The notes beneath the pieces were generated by a model. That model had not been told where the DNA came from and did no database searches. It worked only from the letters and a program-made list of their open reading frames with translations. A program made the translations under genes and the position numbers. 29,278 nucleotides of DNA from a virus (Duplodnaviria; Heunggongvirae; Uroviricota; Caudoviricetes), in IMG/VR virus record IMGVR_UViG_2778261180_000001; one strand, written 5' to 3'. Positions 677-17,846 of the stretch are shown here, in pieces. Each line of letters starts with the position of its first letter. Within the stretch, counting starts at the first letter, position 1.

Positions 677-3600
677 TACCGATATGCTCCACTTAACCGA
701 CCACCATCACGGGCCTGCTGTTGCATAAAGTCCGCTGCCGCTTTTTTCCCGAGGTCATAAACCACCTTCAGGGCAGCCGGACCTATCTGCCCGTTCGTGC
801 CATCGTTATTGATCTCGATGTTGTACTGCGGGGCAAACATCGCCATACCTGAACCACCAATATCCGCCACAACCCCCAGCTTACCGTCAGCACCACGACG
901 CAGTGGCAGAATGGCTTCAGGTCCCGCTTCCCCCATCACACCCGCGCCTTTTGCAAAAGCAAAAAACGTCGGACGGTTAACCACCGTGCCACTGTAACGA
1001 CTCAAATCAGCAGACTGATAAATCCCCCCATTGGCATTCAGGGAAAGGCTGCTGAGATCAAATCCCAGTACACTGCCAATCCCTTTTATCGATTTCATCA
1101 TGGTTGCCTGCGCCAGGATTTTCGCCATATCTGACAGCACAGAAGAGGTGAAGGATTTGAAATTGAGTTTGCCGGTAGTGACAAAAGTTGCCAGGCCATT
1201 TCCCATGTTGCTGAAGGCTGACGAGAACACCTGTTCTGCTGTTCCTGCCGTATTATCTGCATCCACGGTAAAATCCTGAAATGCACGCAGGACTCCGTTT
1301 TTCCAGTTACCCTGCACAACTTCAAGCTGTTGCCAGTAACGGCGATTCTCATTCAGTTGTCGGTTCAGGCTCTCCGTCAGCGCCTGCTCGGCCTTTCTGT
1401 AGTCATCCGTGTTATATGTTCCTTTCTGCTCACTATCCCGCCTCAACTGCTCCAGCTGTTGCTGGTATTTCTGGCGAAGACTCAGTTGTACCTGATATCG
1501 CTGCCGCTGCTGATCACCCATACCCACAGTGGCGATATCCAGGTCATGTTGCTGACGCTGAGCGCGCTCTTCTTCAGCCAGTTGACTGGTCAGCTGAATT
1601 GTTTTTTTCTTCAGCTCGTTGAGTGCCGTCTGTTTCTGAAGCTCCTGCTGTTTTACATCCAGCAGCGTCAGTGCCTGAATCAGTTCATCTTTACGGGCCA
1701 GCACACTCTTTTCATCTGCCGTCAGTTTTTTCCCGTCCAGGTCGCTGATGCGCTGCTGCAGAGCCAGAAGCTGTTTATGCGCTTCTGTCATCCTTTCCGT
1801 GGCAATGCCTGCTGACTGTCTGGCAGCAGCAATCTGTCCTTCCACCTGTGCCTGTTGCTGACTGTACTGCAGCAATAACCGGGTGGCCTCATCATTACGG
1901 GGGTCGCGTGTTTTTTTCTTACCGGATGCCAGGGCTTTCTCGTAACGTTCATTTTCACGTTGTATCGCCGCATCCCTGACAGCCTGATCGGCGTACTGCA
2001 TGGAATTAATACGCGCAATTTCACGCTGATGTCGTGCTGCTTCCGTTTCATTCATCCGGTTCAGTGCAGCATTTTCAGCATTACGGCGTTTCTGTTGCTC
2101 CTGATAATTCCGCTCTGCCTGCTCTTTTGCATCCTGCAAATCCTTCTGGCGTTTTTTCTCCTGAAGCTCGTTAAGACGCTGCTGATCGTACTCAACCTGA
2201 GAAGATGATGCCGTCCAGGGGAGTCTTTTCGCCCGCGACACTTTCTCCTGTAAAGCGGAAATCTGTTCATCCAGCGAGTCTTCACGACCAATATTCATGG
2301 CCGCATCCCAGAAACGACTCCATAAATCAGACAGATACTTCAGCGTACTGCCCAGCGCATTGAGGTTATTATCAATATCCGCAGTACGCCGACCGGTTTC
2401 CTCTGCCAGTGCAGACATGGCTATCCGTGCCGCATCACTGGACCGCCCCTGTTCCCCAAGGACGCGTATCTGCTCAAGCTGAGTGGCAGTAAGAAAATGC
2501 AGCTCATTGTCCAGAGCCTTCGCGGCATTTACAGGATCATCCTTCAGCCGCTTAAACTGATTTATGGTATCGCTGACCGACTGGCCAACCGATCGCTCCA
2601 TCTGTGCGGCAGCTCTCGCCACCATACCGATATCGTTTCCACGAAATGCACCACTCCCCACCACCTGAGCCAGCGCACCGGCTGCAGCATGTTGCGTAAT
2701 ACCATTCCCGGAAATAGCACGACTGAGCGTCCACAGCTGCCCGGCAGTGACTCCGGCATAATGCCCCGTCAGCGACAACTGGCGGTTAAATTCTTCCCCC
2801 TCCTTCTGACCATCATACCAGGCTTTACCCAGACCATAGACGGCCGCGGCAATACCGCCAATAACCCCGCCCAGCATCATGCCTTTCGGTGACATCAGTG
2901 TGTCTATCCATCCGGCACGGTTAGCCAGCGTTATCCCGGATCCCCTCAGCGCACCTAAATTGCCGCGAGCCAGTTCACCTATCAGAACGCCTATCTCCTG
3001 GCGGGCCGCTGCACTTTTCAGACCCAGCGAATGCGTGGCTTTTCCTGCCTGCTCCATTTTGCGGATATACACTTCTGCAGCACTGCTTACCCCCAGCTGG
3101 GCAGCCTTAGCACGAAGCAACTCAGAAGAAGAAAGATTCTGGCGGGTTGCCTGCTCTTTAAGCTGACGGATAAACGCCACTTTCTGTCGGGTAGCCTCTG
3201 CCTCAGCCTGCGTAAGAACACCGGTTTTCGCCGTAACCTCAGAAATCAGCGCCAGATAATCCTGCTGACCAATCCCGCCACTGTTTCTGGCCTGTCGGAT
3301 CTGCTGCTGAATACGCTGTAATTCCTGCAGTCCCGCACTGGCCTGTTTCACACTGTCAATCTGACGATAAAACGCGGCAGCCGCTTTATCCTGAGCCTCC
3401 GCCAGAGCCATGGCCTGCGCCTGTTCCTCGCGCATTTTCTGGCTCAGTGCCTCCATACGCTGGCGGGTTTGCTCCACCTCGCGGGCCATGCGTTCATGAG
3501 CCTGTGCGCTCTTCTCCACCGTCTGCGCATGGACGGATGCGGCTGTTGCAGCCGAAGAAGCCGCCTGCATTGTCTGCCGGGCGGCCTGAGTCTGACGCTC

Positions 3601-13775: not shown

Positions 13776-14468
13776 ATGTCTAGAGAAGGCTCGTTGGACT
13801 TATTGCAAGAAGTTGAAGAAAGTCTTGACATAATGAGACAGACACAGCATATCAAGCCTGTAAAAGTCAAAGCTATTTTGGAAAACTTACGAAGTTCCTT
13901 AGAGTATCTCGCTAATGATACCTATGATAAATATATTTCTCCACGCAGTAATGATGAGCGCCCCAAAATATATTTCCCTTACGGAAAAAAAGAGTTTATT
14001 GATAAATTTTTCTCAAAGACGCTAAAAATAAACCCACCATCATCTTCTCCATTATATAAAATTTTTACTTCTATACAGGATTATCACACTGGCGAATCTT
14101 GGTTGGAAATGATGTGTAATCTCACTAATGAAGTAAAGCACAGACAACCAATCCCCTTAAGAGAAGAGAGTTCTGTTAAAGACCTAAGTGTGAGCGTAGA
14201 TGGTTTTGGTTTAATCACAGCAGGAAGCTCAGCAAAAATTCTCTTTAAAAACAACCACATCAATGGCAAAAAATTAGAAGACTTTACTTTCGAAAATGGG
14301 AAATTACAAAGAAGTGGTAATGGTGTACCTTTAAACATAGTCATTACCGAAGAGAAAAAAATAAGATTCCATGGGAATGACCATGAAGTAATTCCTTTCA
14401 TTGAATCATGCCTTATTAAAATCAGAATTTTTATTATCGAAGCCTATAATGAGTTAGATAAGATTTGA
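13776..14468 (+). CDS. Hypothetical 230-aa protein in an AT-rich moron, antisense to the late operon (candidate lysogen-expressed cargo, possibly defence or exclusion)
   Basis: ATG at 13776 preceded by AAAGGAGA. The gene and its flanks (about 13560-14640) are markedly more AT-rich than the phage backbone. I recognise no family. The position between Rz and cos is the slot occupied by bor in lambda. Confidence 0.6.
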   Translation: MSREGSLDLLQEVEESLDIMRQTQHIKPVKVKAILENLRSSLEYLANDTYDKYISPRSNDERPKIYFPYGKKEFIDKFFSKTLKINPPSSSPLYKIFTSIQDYHTGESWLEMMCNLTNEVKHRQPIPLREESSVKDLSVSVDGFGLITAGSSAKILFKNNHINGKKLEDFTFENGKLQRSGNGVPLNIVITEEKKIRFHGNDHEVIPFIESCLIKIRIFIIEAYNELDKI

Positions 14469-14636: not shown

Positions 14637-15173
14637 TTACTGGCCATGCTCAGATGGTCTGTAACGCAACTCATCAATTTCACGAATACTCGAAAAATTA
14701 TTATTTCCTTTTTCTATCAACGCCAGTAGCGGCTTAATCCACAAGACAGCTTGGCAGTAGGTCATTGAGCTGGTGGTAGCGGTACGATCATAGGCTTCAT
14801 TAGGTCTGCCGGTATCGGTGTGCATGGCGCTGGCACGTAAACGGTACGTGTATTCGAGCAACCCACCAGCGATATCAGCAGGAACAGGCAGATCACAGGT
14901 TTTTTCACGGCGGAGAATCTCCCGGTATTCGATTACGGTTTTTTCGGTGCTGGTGTCGATCAGGGAGTTAAGACTGTTGGCATGTTCTGCAACCTGATTG
15001 AATCGATTGAAGTTGAATGCCTGGGTGGCGATTACCTGCCCCAGCATAGAGTTGTCACTTCGCAGAACGTCGTTATCGCTCTGAAGATTACTGGCGTGAG
15101 AGCAACTCTTGACGAGAGCGACCGAAAGGCCAGCAATAACGACAACGCCTATAAGATCCGGATTAATTTTCAT
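14637..15173 (-). CDS. Rz i-spanin
   Basis: Start inferred at the internal ATG (MKINPDLIGVVVIAGLSVALV...), which has an N-terminal transmembrane segment and overlaps the endolysin gene end. The rest is coiled-coil like. It is the last gene of the lysis cassette. Confidence 0.7.
   Translation of the reverse strand: MKINPDLIGVVVIAGLSVALVKSCSHASNLQSDNDVLRSDNSMLGQVIATQAFNFNRFNQVAEHANSLNSLIDTSTEKTVIEYREILRREKTCDLPVPADIAGGLLEYTYRLRASAMHTDTGRPNEAYDRTATTSSMTYCQAVLWIKPLLALIEKGNNNFSSIREIDELRYRPSEHGQ
14762..14908 (-). CDS. Rz1 o-spanin lipoprotein, embedded in the +1 frame of Rz
   Basis: My own translation of the +1 frame inside Rz gives (GTG)MKKPVICLFLLISLVGCSNTRTVYVPAPCTPIPADLMKPMIVPLPPAQ: a signal peptide, an LVGC lipobox and a Pro-rich body. 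GGGAGA lies 9 nt upstream of the GTG. Confidence 0.5.
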   Translation of the reverse strand: MKKPVICLFLLISLVGCSNTRTVYVPAPCTPIPADLMKPMIVPLPPAQ

Positions 15174-15712
15174 TGCTCCAGCCCCCAGCACGCCAGTGCG
15201 CTTTCCTGATCGCGCCGCTCGACCTGCCCATAACAGCCATTCTTCTGCCCTTTTGTCAGGCGGCAATCACGCCCACCATCTTTTATCCACCAGCGAATCG
15301 CCTCGCATGCCCCCTTACGATCATCGGCATTCAGCCGCTTATAAAACGTCGACGGGAAACACTTACCGGGGCCAATGTTATAGGGACAAAATGACGCTAT
15401 ACCCGCTTTCTGTGGTTCGGTCAGTGGCACTTTAATATTGCGCTCCACCCATGCCAGCGCCTTATCCCGTTCAATGGCGTTAACCTGGTCGCATTTTTCC
15501 TTCGACAGTTTCATACCGGGAAAAACGGGTTTTCCATCCACCACCGTGGCACCCCGACAGATGGTCCAGATGCCGGAACCATCGCGGTATGCCGTTGTGT
15601 GGTTACCTTCTTTTTCATTCAGAAACTGGTCGAGAATATCAGGCGCAGGCGCACCGACGGCAATCAGTGCCAGAACGGCAGCCGACAGGCCGTATCTGAT
15701 TTTTACGTTCAT
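15170..15712 (-). CDS. Endolysin, T4-lysozyme-like (GH24) with an N-terminal SAR-type hydrophobic segment
   Basis: The catalytic triad spacing E-x8-D-x5-T is present in LNEKEGNHTTAYRDGSGIWTICRG. The N-terminus GLSAAVLALIAVGAPAP is Gly/Ala-rich like a signal-anchor-release domain. Paired with an S21-type pinholin. Confidence 0.85.
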   Translation of the reverse strand: MNVKIRYGLSAAVLALIAVGAPAPDILDQFLNEKEGNHTTAYRDGSGIWTICRGATVVDGKPVFPGMKLSKEKCDQVNAIERDKALAWVERNIKVPLTEPQKAGIASFCPYNIGPGKCFPSTFYKRLNADDRKGACEAIRWWIKDGGRDCRLTKGQKNGCYGQVERRDQESALACWGLEQ

Positions 15713-15817
15713 GGATATTTATCAGGATTTATCGGTTTCTGAACCCTGGATATGTTTATCTGTCCCGGCCTGTTGAATCAGGCAAGGAATAGTTAAATAC
15801 AATAGAGAGGATTGTTT

Positions 15818-16090
15818 ATGGACAATAGCACCATTTCTCTACAGGAGTTGCTCGACTGCATTTCCAAGCTTCGGGATGATGTAAATGCCCTTACTGTCGC
15901 ATTTTCATATCTGGCATTCTCAATTCCCAAGGAACAAATGCAACCAACACTGGCATCGCTCCAGCTTGAATCACTCAACCCCAAATGGTCCCAGCAACAA
16001 CAAAATTCTTTCAAGTGGCTGGCGGTATTACTGGAAGAAAAATATGCTGGTGAAATTACCATTTCGGCGGAGTCTTCAGAGAACCAGTAA
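15818..16090 (+). CDS. Hypothetical 90-aa protein encoded antisense within the lysis cassette
   Basis: ATG at 15818 preceded by AGAGAGGA. It fills the 340-bp gap between the ydfR-like gene and the endolysin gene. No family recognised; coding status unproven. Confidence 0.3.
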   Translation: MDNSTISLQELLDCISKLRDDVNALTVAFSYLAFSIPKEQMQPTLASLQLESLNPKWSQQQQNSFKWLAVLLEEKYAGEITISAESSENQ

Positions 16091-16400
16091 TTCTTCCCGG
16101 TAGCTTTCCTTTGTAGGTTATCCACACATTCTGCGCCTCTAAAATTATGGGGCGCTTTTCCGGCGACAGCTCATCCCCTTCACATAACCCGGCAGCAACA
16201 TCCAGGAAGACCTGTCTGATGCTCCTTCTGGCTGCTGCCTCATAAAACTCCAGCGCGGCACCTTCAACACGGTCCAGCGAGATGTCCAGGTCAAAAATTT
16301 CACCGTCAAAGCGTTCTTTGTCCCGTAACGCTAAAGTTACCGTAACTTTATTCTCAAAATTGCGGATCCCTTTCACAATCAGTTCATATTTTTGAGTCAT
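16056..16400 (-). CDS. YdfR-like protein, sitting between holin and endolysin as in Qin-type lysis cassettes
   Basis: 114-aa ORF with ATG at 16400, a GGAGAG Shine-Dalgarno, starting 5 nt after the holin stop. The YdfR assignment is by position (Qin has essQ-ydfR-rrrQ), not by a sequence match I can verify. Confidence 0.5.
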   Translation of the reverse strand: MTQKYELIVKGIRNFENKVTVTLALRDKERFDGEIFDLDISLDRVEGAALEFYEAAARRSIRQVFLDVAAGLCEGDELSPEKRPIILEAQNVWITYKGKLPGRITGSLKTPPKW

Positions 16401-16404
16401 TGAA

Positions 16405-16620
16405 TTACTCTCCCCGTGCAGCCTTACGCTTGTCTTCTTTAATCTTGAAATAAAGGTTTGTCAGGTACGTCAGCAGGCCAAATACCAGGCTACCCAGCAC
16501 ACCTATTGCTGCCCACTGTGAGGGCGTGACTTTATCGAGCAGCTGTAAAAACCAGTAGCCAGCACTGCCTGCGGAGGTGCCGTAGGCAATGCCTGTTGAA
16601 ATTTTGTCCATGGATTTCAT
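16405..16620 (-). CDS. Pinholin, phage 21 S21-like, with a dual-start motif (antiholin from Met1, holin from Met4)
   Basis: [71 protein letters not shown] is near-identical to phage 21 S21 as I remember it. The MKSM dual start corresponds to the S21-71 / S21-68 pair. Confidence 0.85.
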
Positions 16621-16723: not shown

Positions 16724-16748
16724 TAAAAAGCTCGCCGTAGCGAGCTAA
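16724..16748 (-). terminator. Hairpin with flanking A/T runs between the lipoprotein genes and the holin gene
   Basis: Seen directly: AAAAAGCTCGCcgtaGCGAGCTAATAAAA, a 7-bp stem with T-runs on the minus strand. It would need Q-mediated readthrough for holin expression. Confidence 0.35.
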
Positions 16749-16871: not shown

Positions 16872-17267
16872 CTAACCTCGCATGTCAAAGCCAGATTTCT
16901 GAAAATCTCTGTAGACTTCCGGATTGTTGAAGGCCGGAAATTTGGCTTTATGAGCTGCGGACTTTATCGCTTCGCAATAGGCTTTATCACCGTTACTGGT
17001 AGATATTTTTAACGCCGTGCCATCCTGAGAGAATTCCATATGCAACCTGCATTTTTTCCCTTTCCAGTTATGCGGCTCATCAAGTTTGGCATTAATTGCA
17101 GCTCTGATTCCCCGCGCTTGCGCCCCCCATTCATCCTGATCATCCCAGCGTCCTGAACTGCAACTACCTGTAGCAGTAGTTTTGTGGCAATCTGAAGGGT
17201 GTAAAGGTGTGCATCCCGCAACAAAACTGACCCAAAAAGTCAACATAACGATTTTCTTTAATCCCAC
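16872..17267 (-). CDS. Lipoprotein with a TolA C-terminal (TolA-III)-like domain
   Basis: GTG start with a GAGGAG Shine-Dalgarno; signal peptide and lipobox (MGLKKIVMLTFWVSFVAGC). The C-terminal part (KKCRLHMEFSQDGTALKISTSNGDKAYCEAIKSAAHKAKFPAFNNPEVYRDFQKSGFDM) resembles the E. coli TolA C-terminus as I recall it, and is paralogous to the next gene. Confidence 0.7.
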   Translation of the reverse strand: MGLKKIVMLTFWVSFVAGCTPLHPSDCHKTTATGSCSSGRWDDQDEWGAQARGIRAAINAKLDEPHNWKGKKCRLHMEFSQDGTALKISTSNGDKAYCEAIKSAAHKAKFPAFNNPEVYRDFQKSGFDMRG

Positions 17268-17417: not shown

Positions 17418-17846
17418 TCAGGGTTTAAAATCCAGCACCCCATTTTGAAATACTTTATATACTTCCGGCGAAGGGGGGGCAGGTATATCAGCATTCTTTA
17501 TCGCATTCATCGCTTCACGACATAAATCGAGGTCTCCACTTTCTCTTTTAACCTCCAGTAGAAGGCCATTCGGGGCCATATGCATTCTCAGTGTACACTC
17601 TTTTCCTGAATACTTACTCGCATCCCCGAACTGTTTTTCGATGGCGCTCTTGATTTGATGGGCATACAGACGGATATCCTCACTAACATCAGAAGTACGT
17701 TCAGATGAACTCACATACTGTGTCTCTATTGCTTTATCGGAGTAATATGATGTACGGTCATGATAATTTGTCGATACAGCATCAGTGCACCCGATAATAA
17801 TCCCACTAATAATCAACGTAAGAATTGATGCGCTACGAAAACCCAT
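17418..17846 (-). CDS. Lipoprotein with a TolA C-terminal (TolA-III)-like domain, paralog of the previous gene
   Basis: ATG with a GAGGA Shine-Dalgarno; lipobox IIGC. C-terminus YAHQIKSAIEKQFGDASKYSGKECTLRMHMAPNGLLLEVKRESGDLDLCREAMNAIKNADIPAPPSPEVYKVFQNGVLDFKP closely resembles the TolA-III segment ...AGQIKSAIESKFYDASSYAGKTCTLRIKLAPDGMLLDIKPEGGDPALCQAALAAAKLAKIPKPPSQAVYEVFKNAPLDFKP (recalled). Confidence 0.7.
   Translation of the reverse strand: MGFRSASILTLIISGIIIGCTDAVSTNYHDRTSYYSDKAIETQYVSSSERTSDVSEDIRLYAHQIKSAIEKQFGDASKYSGKECTLRMHMAPNGLLLEVKRESGDLDLCREAMNAIKNADIPAPPSPEVYKVFQNGVLDFKP

Follow-up and report, generated by a model that had tools for sequence, protein, structure and literature searches.

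An optional small gene, oriented against the late operon, in the ydfR-endolysin gap of an Escherichia coli prophage lysis cassette

What occupies the gap between the ydfR-like gene and the endolysin gene in the lysis cassette of this prophage, and does it have anything to do with lysis? The window (the whole stretch of DNA analysed, 29,278 nt, IMG/VR record IMGVR_UViG_2778261180_000001) belongs to a lambdoid prophage of E. coli whose late genes lie on the minus strand. An earlier reading made from the sequence only had pointed to an interruption of some 340 bp at this place, to a 90-aa plus-strand ORF with a good Shine-Dalgarno sequence lying within it, and to the convergence of that ORF with the ydfR-like gene, the two overlapping at their 3' ends; as explanations it had offered either a moron expressed in the lysogen or an antisense regulator of lysis timing. 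The gap, the ORF and the overlap are all as described: the gap measures 343 bp, AGAGAGGA stands 6 nt before the ATG, and the two genes have 35 bp in common. The explanation favoured here, which we consider quite probable, is that the gap holds an accessory gene able to move independently (a moron), which entered the S21-holin/YdfR/endolysin cassette at a slot prone to recombination, and whose protein is the selected product.

The cassette and the gene in its gap

The features of the region are as follows, by position in the window.

14637-15173, minus strand: Rz-like gene
15170-15712, minus strand: lysozyme-family endolysin gene (rrrQ-like, 180 aa; PF00959, E 1e-23)
15713-15760, minus strand: conserved endolysin leader (...ACATATCCAGGGTTCAGAAACCGATAAATCCTGATAAATATCC-ATG), about 45 nt, without a canonical Shine-Dalgarno sequence
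15713-16055: gap between ydfR and the endolysin gene, in late-gene (minus) order, 343 bp
about 15779-16059: insert, about 280 bp, G+C 42%, its extent taken relative to phage 611R1-type cassettes (alignment with locus L002, and junction sequences)
15793-16125, minus strand: 110-aa ORF with a GTG start, a non-coding shadow ORF antisense to the 90-aa gene in wobble-to-wobble register
15798-15803, plus strand: TACAAT, a hexamer resembling a -10 element, conserved in most copies
15804-15811, plus strand: Shine-Dalgarno sequence AGAGAGGA, separated by 6 nt from the ATG at 15818
15818-16090, plus strand: protein-coding ORF of 90 aa with its ATG at 15818 and a TAA whose last base is 16090 (WP_000370545.1, phrog_2411)
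16056-16090: convergent overlap of the 3' ends of the ORF and ydfR, 35 bp, encoding the C-terminal tail of the ORF
16056-16400, minus strand: ydfR/DUF1327 gene, 114 aa (PF07041, E 8e-43; phrog_406)
16405-16620, minus strand: S21-type class II holin gene (phage 21 S-type, essD-like, 71 aa; PF04971, E 9e-36)
16872-17267 and 17418-17846, both minus strand: ORFs with TolA C-terminal domains (PF06519, E 1e-14 and 2e-23)

The segment from 15600 to 16500 has a 100%-identical copy in E. coli CFSAN061769 and in many other strains. Outside that segment the CFSAN061769 record departs from the window in places; one example is a helix-turn-helix gene replacing the two TolA-domain ORFs, which are lipoprotein-like and lie in tandem just upstream of the holin gene. 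Also upstream of the holin gene on the late strand is a strong hairpin resembling an intrinsic terminator (16729-16746, minus strand; 7 pairs and a T-run), in the position expected for a Q-antiterminated late terminator.

Databases already contain the 90-aa gene. The RefSeq/PGAP annotation has precisely this ORF, as a hypothetical protein; the exact protein sequence is UniProt A0A135Y1U0 (uncharacterised protein) and is found on at least 1000 contigs; and the protein matches the phrog_2411 HMM with an E-value of 2.2e-59, its residues 1-90 aligning with profile positions 1-90 of 90. The phrog_2411 family is without an assigned function. Sequence searches of Pfam, NCBIfam, PADLOC and PDB gave no match for the protein, the PADLOC-DB defence HMMs, taken to E-values of up to 0.1, matched neither the ORF nor its Serratia homologue nor the alternative ORFs described below, and a literature search turned up no paper on the protein or its phrog_2411 family and no transcript or proteome record of the locus. 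An ATG-initiated ORF of at least 90 aa arose in 17 of 2000 shuffles of 15713-16125.

The absence of an obvious Shine-Dalgarno sequence before the endolysin gene, also remarked on earlier, is real: in ...GATAAATCCTGATAAATATCC, the sequence just before the endolysin ATG, there is no GGAG-like element. The leader of about 45 nt is the same whether a cassette has this insert, a different one or none, and the weak Shine-Dalgarno is thus not due to the insert; comparison across these cassettes indicates that it is a property of the cassette family.

The coding strand

The region singled out by the sequence-only reading ended at 16125, which is the start of the minus-strand ORF 15793-16125, and the first matter to settle is therefore which of the two strands carries the gene. 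Measures of selection are of limited help. Pairwise dN/dS values for the plus frame against six diverged copies range from 0.27 to 0.60, with the single pairwise tests mostly non-significant and purifying selection only moderate, while those for the minus frame range from 0.13 to 0.29, below the true coding frame. The third codon positions of the two frames coincide, and dN/dS is therefore unable to choose between the strands. There is a practical warning in this: an antisense frame whose third positions coincide with those of the true gene can show the lower dN/dS of the two.

Stop codons do distinguish the frames. The plus frame has none in any divergent homologue examined, whereas 2-4 stops break the minus frame in L004 (the copy on the IncF plasmid), in L089 and in two distant homologues, L096 and L098. 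Failure of the plus-strand frame to be conserved had been named beforehand as the outcome that would count against the gene; the frame proved to be open in prophage, plasmid and chromosomal homologues, among them prophage copies at 84-100% DNA identity, and it persists at a nucleotide divergence of 33% and in other genera. Of 93 loci, 90 have an intact ORF, and the holin, ydfR and endolysin genes beside it are intact just as often. The start core, [G/A]AGGATT[A/G]TTTATGG, is invariant in ten prophage copies, with the sequence upstream of it otherwise variable. Translation of the minus-strand ORF gave no family match in Pfam, PHROG or NCBIfam searches and is rich in Cys and Ser, as is typical of antisense translation. 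That the real gene is nevertheless the minus-strand ORF, read with the lysis operon in a cassette that would be tightly packed after all, has next to no chance of being right: its 110 codons open in the operon direction and its low dN/dS speak for it, but a low value is expected in this register, and the stops in the divergent homologues rule it out as a coding gene. Judged by this comparison, the plus strand codes and the minus-strand ORF is a non-coding shadow frame; the ORF at 15818-16090 is thus a genuine, conserved and uncharacterised protein-coding gene.

A few copies of the ORF carry nonsense or +1 frameshift mutations. Decay variants, counting the truncated ydfR of some loci, were noted at L056, L072, L081 and L087-L089 and in proteins P0044, P0046, P0049, P0051 and P0058. 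The nonsense and frameshift mutations, together with dN/dS values reaching 0.6 in some comparisons, the lack of a detected promoter and the cryptic state of many of the host prophages, are what could be said for a non-functional leftover, either a remnant in decay or an artefact of gene calling, without a present role in E. coli prophages. This we regard as very improbable, given the number of intact loci, a strictly conserved Shine-Dalgarno sequence, a frame held over so much divergence and into other genera, and a confident AF2 model of the product.

An optional insert and its relatives elsewhere

The insert is not a fixed part of the cassette. The Qin prophage of K-12 lacks it, ydfR there overlapping rrrQ by 4 bp, as does phage vB_EcoS-611R1, where the gap is 63 bp. 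Homology with the insert-free cassette resumes in the endolysin leader on one side and inside the last ydfR codons on the other; the insert contributes the Shine-Dalgarno sequence, the first 81 or so codons of the ORF, and the two final codons and stop of ydfR. The YdfR tail consequently reads ...GSLKTPP-KW here as against ...GSLKTPP-ESQP in 611R1 (a stop following in each case), the two differing after PP. The G+C content of the insert is 42%, versus 54% for the lysozyme gene, 48% for ydfR and 50% for the holin gene. Of 5426 complete E. coli genomes, about 1053 contain the gap sequence in full, and 5153 have a match to some part of the 901-bp cassette query. Otherwise homologous genomes, then, may have or lack the gene at one and the same site, and its base composition is unlike that of the flanking phage genes, both of which are marks of a moron; since it is also found outside lysis cassettes (below), the moron reading stands as far as an optional insert is concerned.

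Other cassettes have something else at the same place.

L101 1042-1356, plus in locus orientation: orf6 of Stx2 phage 86, 104 aa (phrog_1853)
L102 1021-1287, plus in locus orientation: ORF of phage 2H10, 88 aa, unannotated in the record (phrog_2572)
L103 1048-1287, plus in locus orientation: ORF of phage Perceval, 79 aa, unannotated in the record (phrog_21218)

Like the ORF of the window, all three follow the '...GSLK[T/M]PP' core of YdfR and precede the conserved endolysin leader, and all lie on the same antisense strand and are of similar size (79-104 aa). Profile comparison of the 90-aa family with these three ORFs detected no homology. The adjoining YdfR variants differ as well: those of phage 86 (orf5, YdfR-like, 268 aa), 2H10 (183-190 aa) and Perceval (104 aa) fall in phrog_1085, phrog_2091 and phrog_2735, that of the window in phrog_406. 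The YdfR-like genes of phage 86 and 2H10 have a long C-terminal extension, whereas the YdfR of the window has only 'KW' after the conserved core; the Perceval protein has no extension and diverges earlier from the core. Because related cassettes either lack the insert or carry unrelated small antisense ORFs in its stead, the gene is best seen as a moron-type accessory gene in a variable slot, and the YdfR-endolysin junction, from the cassettes compared, appears to be a slot that has repeatedly held small antisense genes. An accessory gene in a cassette gap is ordinary for lambdoid phages, and the surrounding parts of the cassette are standard.

Homologues are found away from lysis genes, too. 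IncF plasmid p4422IncF (L004 2507-2785; NZ_CP076283.1 56925-57203) encodes a 92-aa homologue with 57% amino acid identity and about 74% DNA identity over the core, situated beside IS remnants and some 300 bp downstream of an autotransporter gene, with no ydfR or lysis gene nearby. Similarity between plasmid and prophage, in DNA and in protein, ends exactly where the prophage ORF enters ydfR antisense, the tails in the prophage/plasmid comparison being ...ITISAESSENQ against ...IAMPEVRKEQ. In L087-L089 (about 3273-3449) the ORF is intact and ydfR is down to a 3' remnant.

A profile search of 1.8 billion representative proteins gave only 18 matches, including relatives of 81-97 aa; these have in common the motifs ELL..I..LR..VN.L..AFSYLAFS and FES. 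A genome scan and tblastn placed homologues of about 38% identity at the chromosomal locus pyrC-dinI-X-bssS-solA of six Serratia species and one Enterobacterales MAG (loci L105-L111; the homologue, about 92 aa, is at about 3971-4252 in L106). The Serratia gene resembles the prophage gene in length, in the AFSYLAFS and FES motifs and in this degree of identity, but differs in occupying a fixed, non-prophage locus conserved across species, with no overlap with a neighbour; it has its own Shine-Dalgarno sequence and is monocistronic, following the dinI terminator. No LexA box was seen by eye upstream of it; dinI alone has one. Further relatives, from Gibbsiella, Chania, Sodalis, Acerihabitans, Chimaeribacter and Erwinia, are without exception annotated as 'hypothetical' and lack any Pfam domain. 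This ties the prophage gene to a family of uncharacterised small proteins whose genes lie on the chromosome, beside dinI and bssS, in Serratia, Erwinia and Sodalis.

The product of the gene is a 10.2-kDa acidic protein (pI 4.3) without a hydrophobic segment, its maximum 19-residue Kyte-Doolittle hydropathy being 0.88. AF2, given a diverse alignment, models three amphipathic helices (residues 8-35, 38-51 and 59-76) with a mean pLDDT of 82, and the protein is predicted to be soluble. The tail at the ydfR overlap has a pLDDT below 50 (residues 80-90 in a first model, 83-90 in a second). This low-confidence tail and the point at which the plasmid homologue diverges both fit the idea that the original 3' end was replaced on insertion and that the frame now reads on to the first stop it meets. 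No informative match came from structural or family comparison of the protein, and none of the traits of a lysis protein (a transmembrane segment, signal-anchor or lipoprotein signal) was found in it. The lack of enzyme-like features, membrane segment and signal peptide suggests that it acts by binding another cytoplasmic protein, which is most likely its role, though this is a guess from size and composition.

Expression and possible roles

Since the gene opposes the late operon, it could not be produced from the late (Q-antiterminated) transcript, and we infer from this orientation that it is expressed from the lysogen strand, by a separate transcript. Simple consensus scans, which miss non-consensus promoters, revealed no plus-strand sigma-70 promoter or terminator around 15713-16400, and no consensus promoter upstream of the phage 86, 2H10 and Perceval ORFs. 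The conserved TACAAT has no acceptable -35 element (TTGAAT lies 19 nt upstream), and its function as a promoter is doubtful because a start 7 nt downstream would remove the conserved Shine-Dalgarno sequence. A promoter and a terminator of its own belong to the classical signature of a moron; with neither recognised by the scans, the gene does not show it.

A useful comparison is bor of phage lambda, a moron adjoining the lysis genes and transcribed in opposition to the late operon. The gene of the window is like bor in being optional at the same position in otherwise homologous phages, in having a base composition unlike its flanks and in lying against late transcription in the lysis region. 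It is unlike bor in having no recognisable promoter or terminator of its own, in encoding a predicted soluble, helical cytoplasmic protein rather than a lipoprotein, and in its location, inside the cassette between ydfR and the endolysin gene instead of after Rz, with its 3' end overlapping a cassette gene. It behaves as an unstudied gene of a well-known kind of element, moron-like in the variable S21/YdfR/endolysin slot.

On the moron explanation, the insert would have brought in both a ribosome-binding site and the ORF for the 10-kDa acidic, soluble, three-helix protein; the gene would be read from a separate transcript of the lysogen strand; selection would act on the protein and not on the RNA; and the protein would bind some other protein of the cytoplasm. 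What is seen in the cassette would then be by-products of insertion: the replacement of the last ydfR codons, the running of the ORF tail 35 bp into ydfR antisense until a stop is reached, and the distance of 343 nt that now separates the end of ydfR from the start of the endolysin gene. As it stands, such a gene has little bearing on phage lysis biology.

There are several ways in which a role in lysis could be imagined. The broadest is that the stretch separating the YdfR core from the endolysin leader is a dedicated cargo slot, whose small lysogen-strand genes (the ORF of the window, orf6 of phage 86, and those of 2H10 and Perceval) are functionally tied to the cassette. This is unlikely; were it true, the genes could be cognate modulators of RNase E-binding YdfR variants or, jointly with their unterminated antisense transcript, a lock against accidental holin expression in lysogens, and the cellular ancestor of one of these modulators would be the gene found between dinI and bssS in Serratia.

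The narrower proposal of the sequence-only reading, an antisense regulator of lysis timing, found no positive evidence, and the protein is conserved even where no lysis genes lie opposite. In its strongest form it would be a safety lock, in which unterminated plus-strand transcription into ydfR and the holin gene damps leaky late expression or tunes lysis, by transcriptional interference or RNA pairing, with the ORF being secondary. The convergent orientation with its 35-bp overlap is consistent with this, as are the lack of a plus-strand terminator between the ORF and the holin gene and the presence of a small antisense-strand ORF in all four of the slot variants examined; if the gene is transcribed, the RNA would indeed run antisense into ydfR and the holin gene and may affect the lysis genes. 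We nevertheless think such a lock quite unlikely, in that it is the amino acid sequence that is conserved on the plasmid and on the Serratia, Erwinia and Sodalis chromosomes, with no lysis gene opposite, and many functional cassettes have no insert at all. Neither RNA-level conservation nor an antisense promoter, by which a cis-antisense RNA regulator would be known, was found, and a search of Rfam at E-values up to 1 gave nothing relevant.

It is also conceivable that the small protein is a functional partner of YdfR, a cognate, antidote-like inhibitor or modulator of the adjacent variant, each C-terminal variant of YdfR travelling with its own small antisense gene. The tail variants phrog_406, phrog_1085, phrog_2091 and phrog_2735 do each lie beside a different small ORF (phrog_2411, phrog_1853, phrog_2572 and phrog_21218, respectively). 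K-12 YdfR is reported, in a paper of 2026, to bind RNase E's N-terminal catalytic domain and to co-purify with RNA; a protein of this kind could plausibly need control, and a functional link between YdfR variants and the small genes is conceivable on that account (PMC13232886). Still, the pairing may merely reflect physical linkage in one variable segment, the YdfR of the window has no extra C-terminal domain to be neutralised, and insert-free ydfR genes exist without any partner. Nor do the ORF and ydfR strictly co-occur, as a toxin/antidote-type pair would: the ORF is intact without ydfR on plasmid L004 and at the Serratia locus, and with a truncated ydfR in L087-L089, a distribution that argues against an obligate pair among the loci compared. 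A partnership with YdfR is therefore decidedly unlikely.

The function of the gene could be tested in a standard laboratory strain, since in the E. coli B lineage the 343-bp gap sequence is identical to that of the window. In E. coli B95.deltaA the holin-ydfR-ORF-endolysin block (L112; NZ_CP085842.1 1402464-1404363) lies in the Rac prophage remnant, between sieB/ydaF and trkG, and the annotation there gives the ORF at 1402991-1403263, with protein WP_000370546.1.

A further plus-strand ORF in the window (13776-14468; 230 aa, G+C very low at 34%) is flanked by the Rz-like gene and the terminase region and oriented against the late genes. It has no Pfam or PADLOC match, and it looks like a second moron.
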